This document shows positions 1-29,532 of a stretch of 64,000 nt of DNA, piece after piece. Source of the stretch: Escherichia coli (GTDB lineage: Bacteria > Pseudomonadota > Gammaproteobacteria > Enterobacterales > Enterobacteriaceae); the NCBI RefSeq assembly GCF_003334385.1, contig NZ_QOWN01000015.1; one strand, written 5' to 3'. The first letter of the stretch is position 1. The number at the start of each line of letters is the position of its first letter. Made by a program: the position numbers and the translations under genes. The notes under the pieces were generated by a model. It searched no databases. It saw nothing but the letters and a program-made list of their open reading frames with translations, and had not been told where the DNA came from.

Positions 1-734
1 ACCAGTTCTGGCACTATATCAGCAATGCTGTGCAGGGGGATTTTGGCCTGTCGATGGTGTCGCGTCGTCCGGTTGCCGATGAGATTGCCAGCCGCTTTAT
101 GCCAACGCTGTGGCTGACCATAACCAGTATGGTCTGGGCGGTTATATTTGGTATGGCGGCGGGAATTATCGCCGCCGTCTGGCGTAACCGTTGGCCGGAT
201 CGATTGAGTATGACCATTGCGGTGTCGGGGATCTCGTTTCCGGCATTTGCTCTGGGGATGCTTTTAATTCAGGTATTCTCCGTTGAACTGGGCTGGCTGC
301 CTACCGTGGGAGCAGACAGTTGGCAGCACTACATTTTACCCTCCCTGACGCTCGGCGCGGCAGTGGCCGCCGTGATGGCGCGCTTTACCCGCGCGTCGTT
401 TGTCGATGTTTTAAGCGAAGATTATATGCGTACCGCGAGGGCGAAAGGGGTGAGCGAAACCTGGGTTGTCCTCAAACACGGGCTACGTAACGCGATGATC
501 CCGGTAGTGACCATGATGGGCTTACAGTTTGGCTTTTTGCTCGGTGGTTCCATCGTTGTGGAGAAAGTTTTCAACTGGCCGGGACTTGGACGCTTACTCG
601 TTGACTCCGTAGAAATGCGTGATTACCCGGTGATTCAGGCGGAAATTCTGCTTTTCTCGCTGGAATTTATTCTTATCAACTTAGTGGTGGATGTGCTTTA
701 CGCCGCCATTAACCCGGCTATCAGGTACAAGTAA
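1..734 (+). CDS. gsiC: Glutathione ABC transporter permease GsiC, 5'-truncated by window edge
   Basis: Frame of ORF 30..734 is open back to position 3 with no stop; translation is DppB/OppB-like permease; followed 2 nt later by gsiD. Confidence 0.9.
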
Positions 735-736
735 GG

Positions 737-1648
737 ATGCGACTATTTAACTGGCGACGTCAGGCGGTGTTAAACGCCATGCCACTGGTCAAACCTGACC
801 AGGTACGTACACCGTGGCATGAATTCTGGCGACGATTTCGCCGTCAGCATATGGCGATGACCGCCGCATTATTCGTTATTTTATTGATTGTGGTGGCCAT
901 TTTTGCACGCTGGATCGCTCCCTATGACGCCGAAAATTATTTTGATTATGACAATCTGAATAACGGACCTTCTTTGCAGCACTGGTTTGGCGTCGATTCA
1001 CTGGGGCGTGACATTTTCAGCCGTGTCCTGGTTGGTGCGCAAATCTCGCTGGCGGCGGGCGTGTTTGCCGTGTTTATCGGTGCGGCGATCGGGACGTTGC
1101 TGGGCTTGCTCGCTGGATATTATGAAGGCTGGTGGGATCGGCTGATCATGCGCATTTGCGATGTGCTGTTTGCCTTCCCGGGTATTTTACTGGCGATCGC
1201 TGTTGTTGCGGTGTTGGGAAGCGGCATTGCTAACGTGATTATTGCAGTCGCCATTTTTTCCATCCCCGCGTTTGCCCGCCTGGTGCGCGGCAACACGCTG
1301 GTGTTGAAACAGCAAACCTTTATTGAGTCAGCACGCAGTATTGGTGCCAGCGATATGACCGTTTTGTTGCGTCATATCCTGCCTGGGACCGTCTCTTCTA
1401 TCGTGGTGTTTTTCACCATGCGCATTGGTACCTCGATTATCTCTGCCGCCAGCCTCTCATTTCTCGGCCTCGGTGCGCAGCCGCCGACACCAGAGTGGGG
1501 AGCAATGCTCAATGAGGCTCGAGCGGATATGGTTATCGCGCCGCATGTCGCTGTTTTTCCGGCCCTGGCTATTTTTCTGACCGTACTGGCGTTCAATTTG
1601 TTGGGCGATGGTTTACGCGATGCGCTGGATCCGAAAATTAAAGGATAG
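737..1648 (+). CDS. gsiD: Glutathione ABC transporter permease GsiD
   Basis: ORF track 303 aa, DppC-like permease; length matches GsiD. Confidence 0.93.
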
Positions 1649-1825
1649 TTACGTTTGAATATTGCTTGAAAGGGTAATCACCTCACAGGAAATTATTGCC
1701 CTAAGCAAGTGTTGTAACTTTCTGCTGATTTTGTAGAATCGGGTAATTTGGTTAAAAAGCCGCAGCAAGGGACAATTTTTGCAGCGGCACAGCGTTCAGA
1801 TAGTTATTTTGTTAAATGTATTAAC

Positions 1826-4174
1826 ATGCTGAGTTTATACGAAAAGATAAAGATAAGGCTGATAATTTTATTTTTATTGGCAGCACTGTCATTTATTGGT
1901 CTTTTTTTCATCATTAACTATCAACTGGTATCGGAGCGCGCGGTAAAACGTGCCGATAGCCGCTTTGAACTTATTCAGAAAAACGTTGGCTATTTCTTTA
2001 AAGATATTGAACGTTCGGCCCTGACATTAAAGGACTCACTGTATTTATTAAAAAATACAGAGGAGATTCAACGCGCCGTGATTCTTAAAATGGAAATGAT
2101 GCCATTTTTAGACTCGGTGGGACTGGTACTTGATGATAATAAATATTATCTTTTTTCGCGGAGGGCGAATGATAAAATCGTTGTTTATCATCAGGAACAA
2201 GTAAATGGACCGCTTGTCGACGAGTCAGGGCGGGTTATTTTTGCCGATTTTAACCCATCGAAACGACCGTGGTCGGTGGCTTCAGATGACTCTAACAACA
2301 GCTGGAATCCGGCATACAATTGCTTTGATCGTCCGGGTAAAAAATGTATCTCTTTTACGCTACACATCAACGGCAAAGATCACGATTTGTTAGCGGTGGA
2401 TAAAATTCATGTCGATTTAAACTGGCGATATCTGAACGAGTATCTTGATCAAATCAGCGCTAATGATGAAGTTCTATTTTTGAAACAAGGCCATGAGATC
2501 ATTGCCAAGAATCAACTCGCTCGTGAAAAACTGATTATTTATAATAGCGAAGGTAATTATAATATTATTGATTCTGTCGATACTGAATATATCGAAAAAA
2601 CATCAGCGGTGCCAAACAACGCATTATTCGAAATCTATTTTTATTATCCTGGCGGTAATTTATTGAACGCATCAGATAAACTTTTTTATCTGCCGTTTGC
2701 GTTCATTATTATCGTATTGCTGGTGGTTTATTTAATGACCACTCGTGTGTTCCGTCGGCAATTTTCTGAAATGACAGAGCTGGTTAATACGCTGGCGTTT
2801 TTGCCTGACTCAACGGATCAAATCGAGGCTCTGAAAATTCGTGAAGGCGATGCGAAAGAGATTATCAGCATCAAAAATTCGATCGCGGAAATGAAAGATG
2901 CCGAAATTGAACGGTCAAATAAATTGCTCTCACTGATCTCTTACGATCAGGAAAGTGGTTTTATTAAAAATATGGCGATTATTGAGTCTAACAATAATCA
3001 GTATCTGGCTGTGGGGATCATCAAACTGTGTGGTCTGGAAGCCGTGGAAGCGGTGTTTGGTGTTGATGAGCGCAATAAAATCGTCAGGAAATTGTCTCAG
3101 CGAATTGCCGAGAAATATGCGCAATGCTGCGATATCGTGACATTCAATGCCGATCTCTATTTACTTCTGTGTCGGGAAAATGTACAGACATTTACCCGTA
3201 AAATAGCGATGGTAAACGATTTTGACAGCAGCTTTGGCTACCGCAATCTGCGCATCCATAAGTCTGCCATTTGTGAACCTTTGCAGGGGGAAAACGCCTG
3301 GAGTTACGCAGAAAAACTGAAACTGGCGATTTCCAGTATCCGTGACCATATGTTCTCAGAGTTTATTTTCTGTGATGACGCGAAACTCAACGAAATAGAA
3401 GAGAATATCTGGATTGCGCGTAATATTCGCCATGCAATGGAAATTGGCGAACTATTCCTCGTCTATCAACCGATCGTTGATATTAACACCCGCGCCATTC
3501 TGGGCGCGGAGGCGTTGTGCCGTTGGGTGTCTGCGGAGCGGGGGATCATTTCACCGCTGAAGTTCATTACCATTGCTGAAGATATCGGGTTTATCAATGA
3601 GCTGGGTTATCAGATTATTAAAACGGCAATGGGTGAATTCAGACATTTTAGTCAGCGTGCGTCGCTGAAGGATGATTTCTTACTGCATATTAATGTTTCG
3701 CCCTGGCAGTTAAACGAACCACACTTTCATGAGCGTTTTACCACCATCATGAAAGAAAATGGCCTGAAGGCGAACAGCCTCTGTGTTGAGATCACTGAAA
3801 CCGTGATCGAGCGAATTAATGAACATTTTTATCTCAATATTGAACAACTGCGTAAACAAGGGGTACGGATATCGATTGATGACTTTGGCACCGGTTTGTC
3901 AAACCTGAAACGTTTTTATGAAATTAATCCAGACAGCATAAAGGTGGACTCGCAATTCACCGGCGATATTTTCGGTACTGCGGGAAAAATTGTGCGCATT
4001 ATTTTCGACCTGGCACGCTATAACCGGATCCCGGTGATTGCGGAAGGCGTAGAGAGCGAAGACGTTGCGCGCGAATTAATCAAATTAGGATGTGTTCAGG
4101 CTCAGGGGTATCTGTACCAGAAACCCATGCCATTCTCCGCCTGGGATAAAAGTGGAAAATTAGTAAAAGAGTAG
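1826..4174 (+). CDS. pdeI: c-di-GMP phosphodiesterase PdeI (YliE), EAL domain with N-terminal membrane/periplasmic region
   Basis: ORF 1748..4174 trimmed to ATG at 1826 (782 aa); C-terminal EAL domain with intact EAL motif (GAEALCRW). Confidence 0.88.
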
Positions 4175-4181
4175 TTTACGT

Positions 4182-5510
4182 ATGTCCAGAATCAATAAGT
4201 TCGTACTTACAGTCAGTCTGCTGATTTTTATCATGATTTCAGCAGTTGCCTGCGGGATCTACACTCAAATGGTAAAGGAACGGGTGTATAGCCTGAAACA
4301 GTCCGTTATTGATACTGCTTTTGCGGTGGCAAATATTGCTGAATATCGGCGTAGCGTGGCAATTGATCTTATCAACACGCTAAATCCCACGGAGGAACAG
4401 CTGTTGGTTGGTTTGCGCACAGCTTACGCCGACTCGGTTTCCCCCTCTTATTTGTACGATGTCGGTCCTTATCTGATTTCCAGTGACGAATGTATTCAGG
4501 TAAAGGAGTTCGAGAAAAATTATTGTGCAGATATTATGCAGGTTGTGAAGTATCGACATGTCAAAAATACAGGGTTTATCTCTTTTGACGGTAAAACCTT
4601 CGTCTATTACCTCTATCCGGTAACTCACAATCGTAGTCTGATATTTTTGCTTGGTCTGGAGCGTTTTTCTTTACTGTCAAAATCGCTGGCGATGGACAGC
4701 GAGAACCTGATGTTCTCTCTATTTAAGAACGGTAAACCGGTGACCGGTGATGAATATAATGCTAAAAACGCCATCTTCACCGTTTCGGAAGCGATGGAGC
4801 ACTTCGCCTATTTGCCGACCGGATTGTATGTATTTGCGTATAAAAAAGATGTTTATTTGCGGGTTTGTACATTGATTATTTTCTTTGCCGCATTGGTGGC
4901 AGTGATATCGGGTGCCAGTTGCCTCTATCTGGTACGCAGAGTGATTAATCGTGGTATTGTGGAGAAAGAAGCCATCATTAATAACCATTTTGAACGCGTA
5001 CTGGATGGCGGGCTTTTCTTTTCGGCTGCCGATGTCAAAAAACTCTACAGTATGTATAACTCGGCGTTCCTGGACGACCTGACCAAAGCAATGGGCAGAA
5101 AATCCTTTGACGAAGATTTAAAAGCGCTGCCGGAAAAAGGCGGTTATTTGTGCCTGTTTGACGTCGATAAATTCAAAAACATTAACGACACCTTCGGTCA
5201 TTTGCTGGGCGATGAAGTGTTGATGAAAGTGGTGAAAATCCTTAAATCACAGATCCCGGTAGATAAAGGTAAAGTCTACCGCTTCGGCGGTGACGAATTT
5301 GCGGTGATTTATACGGGTGGAACGCTGGAAGAGTTGCTATCGATTCTAAAAGAAATCGTTCATTTCCAGGTGGGAAGCATTAATTTAAGTACCAGTATCG
5401 GTGTAGCACATTCAAATGAATGTCCTACCGTCGAACGCTTGAAAATGCTGGCGGATGAGCGGCTGTATAAGAGTAAGAAAAACGGCAGGGCACAGATTAG
5501 CTGGCAGTAA
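4182..5510 (+). CDS. dgcI: Diguanylate cyclase DgcI (YliF), GGDEF domain
   Basis: ORF 442 aa; canonical GGDEF motif (RFGGDEF); starts 8 nt after pdeI stop. Confidence 0.92.
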
Positions 5511-5556
5511 TCATTATTCGCAGGCCGGACAAATGATTTTGCCCGGCCTGAATTAA

Positions 5557-6882
5557 TTAAACCCGGCTACCCCACAAATCGTACTCATCGGCGTGCTCGA
5601 CTTTCACACGCAGGATATCACCCGGCTTAACGTTGGTTTCACCATTGAGATAAACCGCGCCGTCGATTTCCGGTGCATCTGCCATGCTGCGACCAATCGC
5701 GCCTTCTTCGTCCACTTCGTCGATAATCACCAGAATTTCACGGCCCACTTTCTCTTGCAGGCGCTCGGCGGAAATCTGCTGCTGCAGCTGCATGAAACGG
5801 TTCCAGCGTTCTTCTTTAACTTCTTCCGGAACCTGGTCAGGCAGGGCATTGGCGTCTGCACCTTCAACCGGGCTGTATTTAAAGCAGCCAACGCGATCCA
5901 GACGCGCTTCTTTCAGGAAGTCGAGTAGCATCTGGAAATCTTCTTCTGTCTCGCCAGGGAAGCCGACAATAAAGGTTGAGCGTAGGGTCAGTTCCGGGCA
6001 GATTTCGCGCCACTGTTTGATGCGCGCCAGTTGGCGATCTACAGAACCCGGACGCTTCATCAGTTTGAGAATGCGCGGGCTGGCGTGCTGCAACGGAATG
6101 TCCAGATACGGCAGGATTTTGCCTTCTGCCATCAGTGGGATGACGTCGTCCACATGCGGATAAGGGTAAACGTAGTGCAGACGTGTCCAGATCCCCAGTT
6201 TCGATAACTGTTCGCACAGGCTGACCATGCTGGTTTTTACCGGCTCGCCGTTGTGGAAGCCAGTACGATGTTTAACATCAACGCCATAGGCGGAAGTATC
6301 CTGCGAGATCACCAGAATCTCTTTAACGCCCGCATCTACCAGACGTTTCGCTTCACTTAACACTTCGCCAATCGGACGGCTCACCAGGTCGCCGCGCATA
6401 GACGGAATAATGCAGAAGGTGCAGCGGTGATTACAGCCTTCAGAAATTTTCAGATAGGCATAATGACGCGGCGTCAGTTTCACACCTTGTTCTGGCACCA
6501 GGCTCAGGAATGGGTTGTGTTTCGGTTTTGGCACGTAGTGATGAACGTGCTCCAGAACCTGCTCATAGCTATGAGGCCCGGTGATTTCCAGCACTTTCGG
6601 GTGGACTTCGCGGATCTGATCTTCTTTTGCCCCCAGACAACCGGTCACAATAACCTTGCCGTTTTCATTCAACGCTTCACCAATGGCTTCCAGTGATTCT
6701 TGTACCGCGCTGTCAATAAAGCCGCAGGTGTTGACGATCACCATGTCCGCATCGTCATAGCTCGGTACCACGTCATAACCTTCAGTGCGGAGTTCGGTGA
6801 GAATACGCTCTGAATCAACAAGGTTTTTCGGACAGCCAAGGGAAACAAAGCCGATTTTCGGCTGGGGAGTTACTTTGCTCAT
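5557..6882 (-). CDS. rimO: Ribosomal protein S12 methylthiotransferase RimO
   Basis: ORF 441 aa; radical-SAM CxxxCxxC motif (CNHRCTFC), MiaB-like. Confidence 0.95.
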
Positions 6883-7094
6883 AGCTTAAAAAATATTCAG
6901 TTACAGGAAAGGTCAGGGCAGGGATTCTACAGAGTTCTGGATAAAATTTGTATCGCAATCTCATTCGCTGGCGGAGGCGAAGGAAATGTAAATTTTGTTA
7001 ATTCGGCGTGAAGAATTGATCCTGGACAGCATTTTGCTCAAAAAATAGCCATACTATTTAATTGCAACAAGGCAGGGAAGAGGAGGATCGAAGT

Positions 7095-7478
7095 ATGTTC
7101 GTTGACAGACAGCGAATCGATCTGCTGAACCGGTTGATCGACGCACGCGTTGACCTCGCCGCATACGTGCAACTGAGGAAGGCAAAAGGATACATGTCCG
7201 TCAGCGAAAGCAATCATCTACGAGATAACTTTTTTAAACTGAATCGCGAACTGCACGATAAATCGCTGCGGTTGAATCTTCATCTGGATCAGGAAGAGTG
7301 GAGTGCTCTTCATCATGCTGAAGAAGCATTAGCGACAGCCGCAGTATGTTTGATGAGTGGGCACCATGATTGCCCGACTGTTATTACCGTCAACGCCGAT
7401 AAGCTTGAAAATTGTCTGATGAGCTTAACGCTGAGTATCCAGAGCCTGCAGAAGCACGCCATGCTTGAGAAGGCCTGA
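7095..7478 (+). CDS. bssR: Biofilm regulator BssR
   Basis: ORF 7062..7478 trimmed to ATG 7095 (127 aa); AGGAGG RBS at 7081-7086. Confidence 0.9.
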   Translation: MFVDRQRIDLLNRLIDARVDLAAYVQLRKAKGYMSVSESNHLRDNFFKLNRELHDKSLRLNLHLDQEEWSALHHAEEALATAAVCLMSGHHDCPTVITVNADKLENCLMSLTLSIQSLQKHAMLEKA

Positions 7479-7485
7479 AAACTAA

Positions 7486-7525
7486 GGGGGAGAAAGCGTC
7501 TCCCCCTTCATGTTTAAGTTTTTGT
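7486..7525 (+). terminator. Rho-independent terminator downstream of bssR
   Basis: Perfect 8-bp stem GGGGGAGA/TCTCCCCC with 5-nt loop followed by T-rich tract. Confidence 0.8.
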
Positions 7526-7588
7526 AAAAATGAATTTGTTATCTCCTCCACTGACTACGCTTTAAGCCAGAGTCAATCCGGAGGCGTT

Positions 7589-8704
7589 ATGCATCGACAA
7601 TCCTTTTTCCTTGTGCCCCTTATTTGTCTTTCTTCCGCTCTCTGGGCGGCTCCTGCAACGGTAAATGTCGAAGTACTGCAAGACAAACTCGACCATCCCT
7701 GGGCACTGGCCTTTTTACCCGATAATCACGGTATGTTAATCACTCTGCGCGGCGGCGAGTTGCGTCACTGGCAAGCAGGAAAAGGATTATCTGCGCCGCT
7801 TTCCGGAGTTCCGGACGTTTGGGCGCACGGGCAGGGCGGCCTGCTGGACGTGGTTTTAGCGCCTGATTTTGCTCAGTCTCGCCGCATCTGGTTAAGTTAT
7901 TCCGAAGTTGGCGATGATGGCAAAGCCGGAACTGCTGTGGGTTATGGCCGCTTAAGTGATGATCTCTCAAAAGTGACCGACTTCCGCACCGTCTTTCGCC
8001 AGATGCCAAAACTGTCTACCGGCAACCATTTTGGCGGGCGGCTGGTATTCGACGGTAAAGGTTATCTTTTTATTGCTCTGGGCGAAAACAATCAGCGCCC
8101 GACGGCGCAGGATCTGGATAAATTACAGGGCAAACTGGTGCGTCTGACCGACCAGGGCGAAATCCCGGATGATAATCCTTTTATAAAGGAATCCGGTGCG
8201 CGCGCCGAGATCTGGTCTTATGGCATTCGTAATCCGCAAGGAATGGCGATGAATCCGTGGAGTAATGCACTGTGGCTGAATGAACATGGCCCGCGCGGTG
8301 GTGATGAAATTAATATCCCGCAAAAAGGCAAAAACTACGGCTGGCCGCTGGCAACCTGGGGAATCAACTATTCAGGCTTTAAGATACCGGAAGCGAAAGG
8401 GGAGATCGTCGCCGGGACCGAGCAACCTGTTTTTTACTGGAAAGATTCGCCCGCTGTGAGCGGCATGGCCTTCTATAACAGCGATAAATTCCCCCAGTGG
8501 CAGCAAAAATTATTTATTGGCGCGCTGAAAGATAAAGATGTCATTGTGATGAGCGTCAACGGCGACAAAGTGACAGAAGATGGCCGTATTTTAACGGACA
8601 GAGGGCAGCGAATTCGTGATGTTCGCACTGGACCCGACGGTTATTTATACGTTCTCACCGACGAGTCCAGTGGGGAATTACTTAAAGTTAGCCCACGCAA
8701 TTAG
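7589..8704 (+). CDS. yliI: Soluble aldose sugar dehydrogenase YliI (PQQ-dependent beta-propeller)
   Basis: ORF 371 aa with N-terminal signal peptide; length matches YliI. Confidence 0.9.
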
Positions 8705-9327
8705 CTAACGGGAATCATCACCACTTTGCGCACTGCGGGGCGTTCAGTGAGTTGCTGATACCAGCGTTGCAGATTTGGACGCGGTGTCCAGGTCAGGCCA
8801 ACGTTAAACAAATTGTAGATGAACGGTGCGATAGCGATATCGCCCACACCAAACTCGTCGCCAGAGAACCATTTTACTTTTGCCAGTTCCGCATCGAGCA
8901 GGGCAAACAGGGCGTCGCACTCTTTGCAACTGGCATCAATGGCGGCCTGATCGCGCTCTTCCGGTGGTGTTCTGACTAATCCCATCAGGATCCCGCGATG
9001 AGCATTACTGAGCGTCTGGTTTGCCCAGTCCATCCATTTTTCCGCTTCCGCACGACGTGCCGGTGAGTCGATCCACAGGCGTTTTTGCCCGTACTGTGCC
9101 GCCAGATAGCGGACAATGGCGTTTGATTCCCAAAGAATGAGATCACTTTCGTCGTCACGCAACAACGGCACCAGCCCGTTAGGGTTCATCGCCAGAAAAT
9201 CAGCATCGTGATTTATCCCAAACTCACGGCCCGCGAGAATTTGCTCATAAGGTAGTTCCAGTTCTTCGAGCGTCAGCAATACTTTTTTTACGTTAGTTGA
9301 ATTATTCCGACCCCACAGCGTAATCAT
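8701..9327 (-). CDS. gstB: Glutathione S-transferase GstB
   Basis: ORF 8701..9333 trimmed to ATG (208 aa); GST fold; stop overlaps yliI stop. Confidence 0.9.
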
Positions 9328-28690: not shown

Positions 28691-29422
28691 TTACTGTGGG
28701 AACCACTGGTCACTGATTTTTTGATAAGTACCGTCAGCTTTAATTGCTGCCAGCGCGTTATTCAGTTTTTCCAGCAGGGCTTTGTTATCCGGACGTACAG
28801 CGATGCCCAGGCCGGTGCCAAAATATTGCGGATCGGTCACTTTCTCAGTAGCAACACCAAGTTGTGGATTGGTTTTCAGCCATTCGTTTACCACCGCTGT
28901 GTCACCAAATACCCCATCAATACGACCATTTTTCAGATCGATAAAGGCATTCTGATAACTGTCATAAGAGACAGTTTTCACTTCCGGGTGCTGATCCTGA
29001 ATATATTTCTGGTGCGTAGTACCGTTTTCCATCCCAATACGTTTGCCTTTCAGATCGGCAAACGTTTTGTAGGTATCTTTTTTGGCAATCACGACGGCTG
29101 AGTTTTCATAGTAGGGCGTGGTAAACGATACCTGTTTGCTACGCTCCGGGGTGATATCCATACCGGAGATTACGGCGTCATATTTTCTGAATTTCAGGGA
29201 CGGGATCAGGCTGTCGAACGCGTGATTAGTAAAAGTACATTCTGCCTGCATTTGTTTGCACAAGGCTTTTGCCAGATCGATATCAAAGCCGACAATCTCA
29301 TTATTAGCACCTATAGATTCAAAGGGTGGATAGGTGGCTGAAACGCCAAAATTGATTTTCTCTGCGGCAGAAGCACCGAAAGTAAAGGAAGCAAGTAAAG
29401 CGGCAAGAACTAACTTTTTCAT
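28691..29422 (-). CDS. artJ: Arginine ABC transporter periplasmic binding protein ArtJ
   Basis: ORF 28691..29473 trimmed to ATG (243 aa); paralogue of ArtI. Confidence 0.92.
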   Translation of the reverse strand: MKKLVLAALLASFTFGASAAEKINFGVSATYPPFESIGANNEIVGFDIDLAKALCKQMQAECTFTNHAFDSLIPSLKFRKYDAVISGMDITPERSKQVSFTTPYYENSAVVIAKKDTYKTFADLKGKRIGMENGTTHQKYIQDQHPEVKTVSYDSYQNAFIDLKNGRIDGVFGDTAVVNEWLKTNPQLGVATEKVTDPQYFGTGLGIAVRPDNKALLEKLNNALAAIKADGTYQKISDQWFPQ

Positions 29423-29532
29423 GATGGAACTCCCGTCTGTCAATCTTATGATTTTTGGCCGTGTCTGCGGCATGGGATAACAATGCCATCAAGTGAATTT
29501 ATATGCAATAAACATGATTAAATAATTTAAAT

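Follow-up and report, generated by a model that had tools for sequence, protein, structure and literature searches.

The stretch of Escherichia coli DNA analysed here (64,000 nucleotides of contig NZ_QOWN01000015.1, assembly GCF_003334385.1; hereafter the window) includes pdeI and dgcI, adjacent genes whose products are predicted to degrade and to make cyclic di-GMP (c-di-GMP), respectively. The explanation that best accounts for the pair, to which we give a probability of roughly three in four, is that it is an old acquired insertion that has been fixed in Escherichia and partly ameliorated, that it is an orphaned member of a group of mobile modules in which an EAL gene is followed by a GGDEF gene, and that its products would act as a source and sink of c-di-GMP.

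The pdeI-dgcI locus

Bases 1649-5556 of the window are 100% identical to the corresponding sequence of E. coli K-12 derivatives, including RP437, in which the two open reading frames (ORFs) are annotated as pdeI and dgcI. The feature is the known, already annotated pdeI-dgcI (yliE-yliF) locus of K-12, and neither its sequence nor its domains differ from those in RefSeq and the literature. We take pdeI (yliE) to be b0833 and dgcI (yliF) to be b0834. Both ORFs were found on the plus strand at the positions assigned to them in an earlier note on this DNA, pdeI at 1826-4174 (782 aa from an ATG) and dgcI at 4182-5510 (442 aa), though the gap between them, which had been put at 8 nt, is a 7 nt spacer (TTTACGT, 4175-4181). 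A longer pdeI ORF that starts with a TTG at 1748 is also present. Because the MxSxxEK N-terminus encoded from the ATG at 1826 is conserved in relatives, this ATG is likely to be the true start and the TTG ORF is unlikely to be used.

Upstream of pdeI is gsiD (737-1648, plus strand), and the 177 bp between them (1649-1825, 37% GC) form the left edge of an AT-rich block and the 5' regulatory region of pdeI. Downstream, rimO (5557-6882, minus strand) is convergent with dgcI. Between the dgcI and rimO stop codons is a GC-rich hairpin (5521-5550) that resembles a repetitive extragenic palindrome (REP) and has a free energy of -20.3 kcal/mol (z = -4.4). It is probably a bidirectional terminator as well as the right edge of the insertion.

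The genes have long been annotated, and a link to plasmids and cellulose synthesis was described in a 2025 preprint (bioRxiv 10.1101/2025.05.09.653004), so the finding itself is already known. Added here are an evolutionary history, in which an insertion at gsiD/rimO in the Escherichia lineage is tied by a gradient in third-position GC content (GC3) to a low-GC donor; the divergence of pdeI and dgcI as one unit, with purifying selection on both; an argument from sequence that counters the recent claim of cyclase activity for PdeI; and predicted dCache folds for both orphan sensor domains, which would make ligand screening a defined experiment.

Base composition and the gsiD/rimO junction

The GC contents of pdeI (0.416) and dgcI (0.435) are the two lowest among the 50 genes of the window, the other 48 of which have 0.525 +/- 0.026 (z = -4.2 and -3.4). 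In 200 bp windows, GC goes from 0.55 to 0.35 over approximately the first 100 bp past the gsiD stop codon and is back at 0.52-0.55 at the dgcI stop codon. The impression, gained by eye in the earlier note, that this stretch is more AT-rich than its neighbours is therefore confirmed by windowed and per-gene values. The most AT-rich part encodes the periplasmic region of PdeI (0.376 GC), and the catalytic domains are at about 0.45.

Most of the AT bias sits in amino acid composition and not in synonymous codon choice. At the first and second codon positions, the GC contents (GC1 and GC2) of both genes are below those of all other genes in the window, and the amino acids F, Y, M, I, N and K (FYMINK) make up 35% of PdeI and 33% of DgcI, versus 23% elsewhere (z = 3.7 and 3.1). 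GC3 is moderately low, at 0.45 for pdeI and 0.50 for dgcI versus 0.575 (z = -2.8 and -1.8). The Karlin codon-usage distances to the pooled neighbours (0.21 and 0.25 versus a mean of 0.30; z = -1.4 and -0.7) are ordinary, as are the proportions of classical rare codons (4.2% and 4.5% versus 3.5%; z = +0.5 and +0.6). Relaxed codon usage, which had been suggested as one cause of the AT-richness, was rejected as neither the Karlin distance nor the rare-codon fraction is anomalous, and the ratio of nonsynonymous to synonymous substitution rates (dN/dS) is approximately 0.05.

The junction was surveyed in approximately 10 species-representative genomes by anchoring on RimO and then querying with the window proteins using tblastn. 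The RimO-anchored scan returned at least 13 or so Enterobacterales loci; Salmonella and Klebsiella chromosomes were not among the matches listed. The junction is empty in Citrobacter werkmanii and two Enterobacter species, where only approximately 45 bp, with a hairpin and nothing else, separate the stop codons of gsiD and rimO; in Citrobacter a REP-like hairpin is at the place that matches 5521-5550. No PdeI or DgcI match was found at the junction in Mangrovibacter (gap of approximately 100 bp), Erwinia psidii (approximately 500 bp) or Enterobacter sp. Ag1 (approximately 880 bp), and in Superficieibacter, where pdeI-dgcI is also absent, the junction is occupied by 3 kb containing four unrelated genes.

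The pair is present at the junction in other Escherichia species. In Escherichia albertii the order is rimO, an extra HEAT-repeat ORF, dgcI (93% identity), pdeI (88%) and gsiD (97%), and an Escherichia fergusonii contig contains gsiC, gsiD, pdeI (69%), dgcI (78%) and rimO. Among complete E. coli genomes, the stretch was matched in all 5426 of 5426 and was at least 80% covered in 5381. The pair is core to Escherichia, and among the matches listed only Escherichia species carry it at this junction; it is not universally conserved in this position across the Enterobacteriaceae, as the presence/absence comparison proposed in the earlier note reveals. Together, the atypical composition and the empty gsiD/rimO sites in other genera support the conclusion that pdeI-dgcI is an old horizontally acquired insertion between convergent gsiD and rimO that has been fixed in Escherichia, an origin at which the earlier note had hinted.

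In a comparison with E. albertii, pdeI has a dN/dS of 0.059 and dgcI one of 0.049, versus 0.020 for gsiD and 0.002 for rimO, and the synonymous divergence (dS) of the pair (0.66-1.10) is in the same range as that of the flanking genes (0.60-0.87). These values fit vertical descent since the common ancestor with E. albertii, under a constraint that is purifying but looser than that on the flanks, and by this measure the K-12 copy appears functional and not decaying.

Several observations weigh against an acquisition. The edges of the pair have no integrase or transposase ORF and no direct or inverted flanking repeat of at least 9 nt, and no tRNA gene was found in positions 1-9000 of the window, so no particular insertion mechanism is supported. 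Neither the homologue searches nor the sensor-profile search described below found a low-GC donor lineage that carries the module. Given a sample of about 10 genomes, an alternative history, in which an ancestral pair was lost repeatedly in other genera, may still apply.

A related alternative is that the pair is native and vertically inherited, and has become AT-rich through weak expression and relaxed codon selection. The bare edges are consistent with this, as are the very low expression in K-12 (PMC5635695), the somewhat low GC3 and the core status of the pair in E. coli. However, the junction is empty in related genera, the compositional outliers are GC1, GC2 and amino acid content while codon-usage distance and rare codons are ordinary, and the dN/dS values indicate strong constraint. 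Moreover, the homologous modules on plasmids are more AT-rich still. We consider a native origin largely refuted and accord it very little probability.

A family of mobile two-gene modules

When 5.8 billion proteins were searched for full-length DgcI homologues (GAPES2 plus GGDEF), only the Escherichia/Shigella orthologues and a few clades with 33-43% identity were returned. Four of these divergent clades were inspected, and in all four the dgcI homologue is directly preceded, on the same strand, by a gene for a PdeI homologue (770-782 aa, 29-39% identical), the junctions between the two genes being +9, +4, -11 and -4 nt. The contexts of the four differ. The first is a Salmonella/E. coli plasmid backbone with CcdAB and KfrA, where the pair lies beside raffinose/sucrose genes. 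In a contig of Escherichia ruysiae (GCA_019839365.1) the pair is followed after 84 nt by bcsA, the product of which has a PilZ domain, and then by bcsB and bcsC, and in the E. coli plasmid p40EC-3 it is likewise followed by bcsA-bcsB-bcsC. In the fourth, plasmid pSF10EC-2, the position is flanked by insertion sequences (IS). Approximately 100 plasmids in PLSDB contain copies that are 33-41% identical; Escherichia accounts for 107 of the 108 matching records. When a profile built on the sensor region of PdeI was run against 1.84 billion representative proteins, 52 matches were obtained, and the named ones that were checked were from E. coli, Salmonella and, more distantly, Hafnia/Obesumbacterium.

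Homologues of yliE/yliF beside plasmid bcs clusters were first reported in the 2025 preprint, which left two hypotheses, diversification within the genus or import from an unidentified species. The divergent modules are only 33-34% GC, with a GC3 of 28%, and are found within loci of 45-49% GC. From that 28%, GC3 rises to 0.40 and 0.37 (pdeI and dgcI) in E. fergusonii and to the 0.45 and 0.50 of K-12, the pattern expected if DNA from a low-GC donor (approximately 33% GC) was ameliorated fastest at synonymous sites, with the K-12 copy partly ameliorated. These composition data favour import over diversification within the genus.

Pairwise identity matrices for PdeI and DgcI from five deep lineages are correlated (r = 0.92), and of the 120 permutations of labels only the true labelling reaches this value. 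As the two matrices correlate, we conclude that pdeI and dgcI diverged together as a unit. Relative to the K-12 pair, the plasmid- and bcs-linked pairs share gene order, domain architectures, near-abutting or overlapping genes and catalytic residues, and differ in that they are 29-43% identical, have the low GC content given above and lie on plasmids or beside bcsA2/3 operons. The K-12 pair, in contrast, is chromosomal, core, partly ameliorated and without an adjacent effector. It is most likely one orphaned chromosomal member of a small mobile family in which the EAL gene always precedes the GGDEF gene.

In the E. ruysiae contig (L084, 11426-21196), GC rises downstream of the pair, from 38% in bcsA2 and 43% in bcsB2 to 58% in bcsC and 52% in the gene that closes the bcs cluster, which encodes a PdeK-like GAPES3-GGDEF-EAL protein. 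The rise suggests that imported bcs DNA here adjoins resident bcs DNA.

Predicted activities and sensors of DgcI and PdeI

PdeI and DgcI were each examined in an alignment of seven members, namely those of K-12, E. albertii and E. fergusonii and the four deeply divergent copies. Pfam matches in DgcI are GAPES2 (aa 26-229, E = 2e-143) and GGDEF (aa 295-437, E = 1.6e-24; window 5064-5492). The active-site residues D327, D329, K332, N335, D344, R367, the GGDEF motif (369-373), K432 and R436 are invariant in sequences as little as 33% identical, and judged by motif and by metal- and GTP-binding residues DgcI is predicted to be an active cyclase. At the inhibitory-site position K-12 has V-D-K-G, and the RxxD motif is absent from all seven members. 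The DgcI I-site is also listed as non-consensus in PMC3484386, where the residue tables for CFT073 agree with the EAL and GGDEF residues found here. Synthesis of c-di-GMP has been reported for Shigella flexneri DgcI, according to a citation in PMC13320778. In K-12, DgcI was undetectable and it was toxic on overexpression (PMC5635695), behaviour consistent with a cyclase that is not subject to product inhibition and depends on a phosphodiesterase of its own. Toxicity from the higher-copy vector also meant that the two-hybrid data for DgcI in that study were obtained without a vector swap.

PdeI matches CHASE9 (aa 35-150) and EAL (aa 532-767, E = 2e-69) in Pfam. Within the EAL domain (aa 526-775; window 3401-4150), the catalytic set is complete, comprising E562-A-L-x-R566, N623, E655/E658, D685-D686, K706/D708, E740-E743 and Q760-G761, and does not vary among the seven sequences, identity among which is as low as 29%. 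In loop 6, PdeI has DDFGTGLSN in place of the more usual DFG(T/A)GYSS. By fold, profile and residues, PdeI is thus predicted to be a catalytically competent EAL phosphodiesterase. The intact EAL and GGDEF motifs described in the earlier note are therefore upheld in full, as are the N-terminal membrane and periplasmic regions that it assigned to both proteins. Its account of the domains was right about the PdeI EAL domain and sensor, and missed a third, degenerate GGDEF-fold domain between them.

This middle domain (aa ~391-505; window 2996-3340) is aligned by the NCBIfam tandem GGDEF-EAL models GepA and DosP, from residues 376 and 388, respectively. At the GGDEF position it has FNADLY in K-12 and FNSNTY, LSSDLY, ISTETY, LSPYKY, INKNKY or ISDKIF in other family members, and the alignment shows neither the DxD that binds metal nor the N and D that bind the base. 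Searches with Pfam, a PDB profile search and hhalign (E = 0.17) did not recognise it as GGDEF. Because the signature varies in every member, the metal-binding aspartates are missing and profiles fail, we conclude that the domain is degenerate and non-catalytic, with only its fold GGDEF-like.

In each protein two hydrophobic segments bracket the sensor region. Those of PdeI are aa 12-30 (window 1859-1915), with a Kyte-Doolittle value of 3.1 and a long N-terminal helix in the AlphaFold2 (AF2) model, and aa 286-304 (2681-2737), recognised from hydrophobicity and the same model; those of DgcI are aa 8-26 and 224-242. The PdeI periplasmic region (aa 33-283; 1922-2674), which includes the CHASE9 match, has only eight invariant columns in the seven-member alignment and is predicted to adopt a double-Cache (tandem PAS-like) fold. 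A dCache-like fold is also predicted for the GAPES2 region of DgcI (aa ~30-221; 4269-4844). Both sensors are accordingly modelled as tandem PAS-like modules with a long stalk helix, held between two transmembrane segments.

In each sensor, two periplasmic cysteines are invariant throughout the family. In PdeI these are C166 and C174 (window 2321-2347), at the base of a predicted beta-hairpin, and in DgcI they are C104 and C115 (4491-4526), in the pattern C-x10-C. They may form disulfides or provide a redox input, by analogy with the CSS-domain phosphodiesterases. Like PdeI, the latter (PdeC, PdeB, PdeD, PdeG and PdeN) are membrane EAL proteins with a periplasmic domain between two transmembrane segments and two conserved cysteines. 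PdeI differs from them in having no CSS match in Pfam and a periplasmic domain that is dCache-like.

Is PdeI itself a cyclase?

In a 2024 eLife paper, PdeI was itself described as a diguanylate cyclase that acts through its divergent GGDEF domain, which would make the pair two cyclases. Overexpression of PdeI raised c-di-GMP approximately 11-fold, the c-di-GMP level correlated with PdeI-BFP (blue fluorescent protein), and a G412S substitution, which falls in the middle domain, abolished the rise (PMC11651652). The increase conflicts with a simple role for PdeI as a sink. However, the sequence of PdeI argues against a direct cyclase role: the GGDEF position differs in every member, the metal-binding and base-binding residues are missing, neither Pfam nor profile-profile comparison recognises the domain as GGDEF, and all EAL residues are invariant in a family that is only 29-39% identical. 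In addition, overexpression of pdeI conferred resistance to the c-di-GMP-dependent phage N4, as other phosphodiesterases do (PMC7553319). The adjacent dgcI seems not to have been considered in PMC11651652, a paper that a full-text search demanding both gene names did not retrieve. We regard cyclase activity of PdeI as very improbable.

A different and still speculative reading, for which we see a small but appreciable chance, is that the pair is a split bifunctional enzyme, in which the dead GGDEF-fold domain of PdeI would contact the GGDEF domain of DgcI, or its dimer interface, and the ligand state of the PdeI dCache domain would gate both DgcI and PdeI's own EAL domain. If so, the 11-fold rise and its reversal by G412S would be explained, as the c-di-GMP would come from chromosomal DgcI. 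Constant co-inheritance of the genes and the tolerance of a cyclase without product inhibition would be explained as well. The invariant periplasmic cysteine pairs of the two proteins might add a shared redox input.

Transcription of the pair

As the 7 nt junction leaves no space for a terminator or promoter, co-transcription of pdeI and dgcI is likely. A candidate sigma-70 promoter for both genes (1712-1739, plus strand; TTGTAA, 16 nt, TAGAAT) was identified in a consensus scan with 9/12 matches. Site counts in the promoter/terminator scan of the region were equal to those expected by chance, and this site was retained for its conservation across species: the ATTTTGTAGAATC block, which includes the -10-like TAGAAT, is invariant in E. 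coli, E. albertii and E. fergusonii. In the literature on H-NS binding at yliE, nothing decisive was found, and a search for a paper on PdeI/HipH found none.

The genes could instead be adjacent but independent, with dgcI expressed from its own, possibly sigma-54, promoter within pdeI and each product feeding a global c-di-GMP pool. A genomic SELEX (systematic evolution of ligands by exponential enrichment) study assigned a peak of RpoN holoenzyme to yliF (PMC8743547), and this counts against a single shared transcript. In CFT073, deletion phenotypes were reported for yliF and not for yliE (PMC3484386). Yet no convincing sigma-54 element was found. A scan with TGGCAC-N5-TTGCW, allowing up to 3 mismatches, gave 298 matches in the window, whereas 341 would be expected on average by chance. 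The best candidate for an internal dgcI promoter, TGGCACCGGTTTGTCA (3886-3901, plus strand), was dropped as it consists of codons for the EAL loop DDFGTGLS, and the published RpoN peak falls at approximately window position 3415, if its genome coordinate applies to this strain, and not at 3886-3901. Independence is also difficult to reconcile with the retention of adjacency, order and near-zero spacing in five lineages that are 29-43% identical and in unrelated contexts, with the co-divergence of the two families, or with the joint response of the genes, which are up-regulated together by BolA (PMC5605933) and at 37 C (PMC12890032). On balance we find independent expression improbable.

A proposed signal-gated source and sink

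Under the explanation that we favour, an old acquired EAL-then-GGDEF module, the two genes would be expressed from one transcript that sets a fixed proportion of PdeI to DgcI. Both products would be anchored in the inner membrane and would bind ligands through dCache-like periplasmic domains from two different families, one containing CHASE9 and the other GAPES2. DgcI would make c-di-GMP without a product-inhibition site to restrain it, and PdeI would hydrolyse it via its EAL domain, the dead GGDEF-fold domain most likely serving a regulatory or protein-contact role. The pair would thereby form a signal-gated source and sink, and the local pool of c-di-GMP that it sets would serve a dedicated effector. 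For the relatives, the most likely effector is BcsA, which contains a PilZ domain and is encoded in the accessory cellulose synthase operon just downstream, as two independent lineages place the pair directly before bcsA. In K-12 that target has probably been lost or replaced, and expression is very low. Against this, no effector is encoded beside the pair in K-12. Beyond co-transcription, we infer physical or local coupling, cellulose synthase as the ancestral target and ligand inputs to the pair. For the local signalling circuit postulated in the earlier note, the divergent copies that adjoin bcs genes and the co-divergence of the two families provide indirect support.

Other c-di-GMP systems of E. 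coli offer partial parallels. Like pdeI-dgcI, dgcO-pdeO (dosC-dosP) is a cyclase and phosphodiesterase pair that is co-transcribed, as stated in PMC5635695. In PdeO (DosP), too, a degenerate GGDEF domain precedes an EAL domain, and PdeI aligns to the DosP model from residue 388; in dgcO-pdeO, however, the cyclase gene is first and the products have no membrane anchoring. Their sensors are cytoplasmic haem-based O2 sensors and not periplasmic dCache domains. DgcC (AdrA) and PdeK (YhjK) are a dedicated membrane cyclase and phosphodiesterase that locally control one PilZ-containing enzyme, the core cellulose synthase BcsA. Unlike pdeI and dgcI, their genes are not adjacent and their sensors are MASE2 and GAPES3, and interaction has been shown for DgcC/PdeK, whereas that between PdeI and DgcI is putative.

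Further observations at the junction and in the window

The extra ORF next to rimO in E. albertii (L001, 2016-2729) encodes a 237 aa HEAT-repeat protein that weakly resembles the 'putative lyase' PRK09687, below the curated cut-off. A homologue is found inside the 3 kb, four-gene insert at the same junction in Superficieibacter electus (L002, 11448-14286). As this unrelated insert, with its homologue of the E. albertii ORF, occupies the same position, the convergent gsiD/rimO junction looks like a recurrent insertion spot.

In E. albertii NBRC 107761, the frame at the 5' end of pdeI (L001, 6283-6400) is lost at a T run that falls in the region of the first transmembrane segment, and a stop comes after approximately 30 codons. 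Either pdeI is a pseudogene in the type strain or the draft assembly contains a homopolymer error. The gsiC-gsiD-pdeI-dgcI segment of E. fergusonii (L085, 762-6783) is unusually distant from K-12, with gsiCD sharing 75-81% nucleotide identity and a dS of approximately 2.06; for comparison, dS is 0.87 both for the 3' end of E. fergusonii rimO and for E. albertii gsiD. The segment may have been acquired by allelic replacement from a more distant lineage.

The pair has been lost or interrupted in a few E. coli genomes. In HCP30S3_I2 (L088, 5292-6120), the DNA that begins just past gsiD has been replaced by IS1, with only the final ~114 nt of dgcI remaining, and in others IS1 or IS903B is inserted within pdeI-dgcI. 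The window genes with the next-lowest GC content, both less extreme than the pair, are artJ (28691-29473, minus strand; 0.451) and a gene for a Cof-type HAD-IIB hydrolase (14163-14978, minus strand; 0.456).

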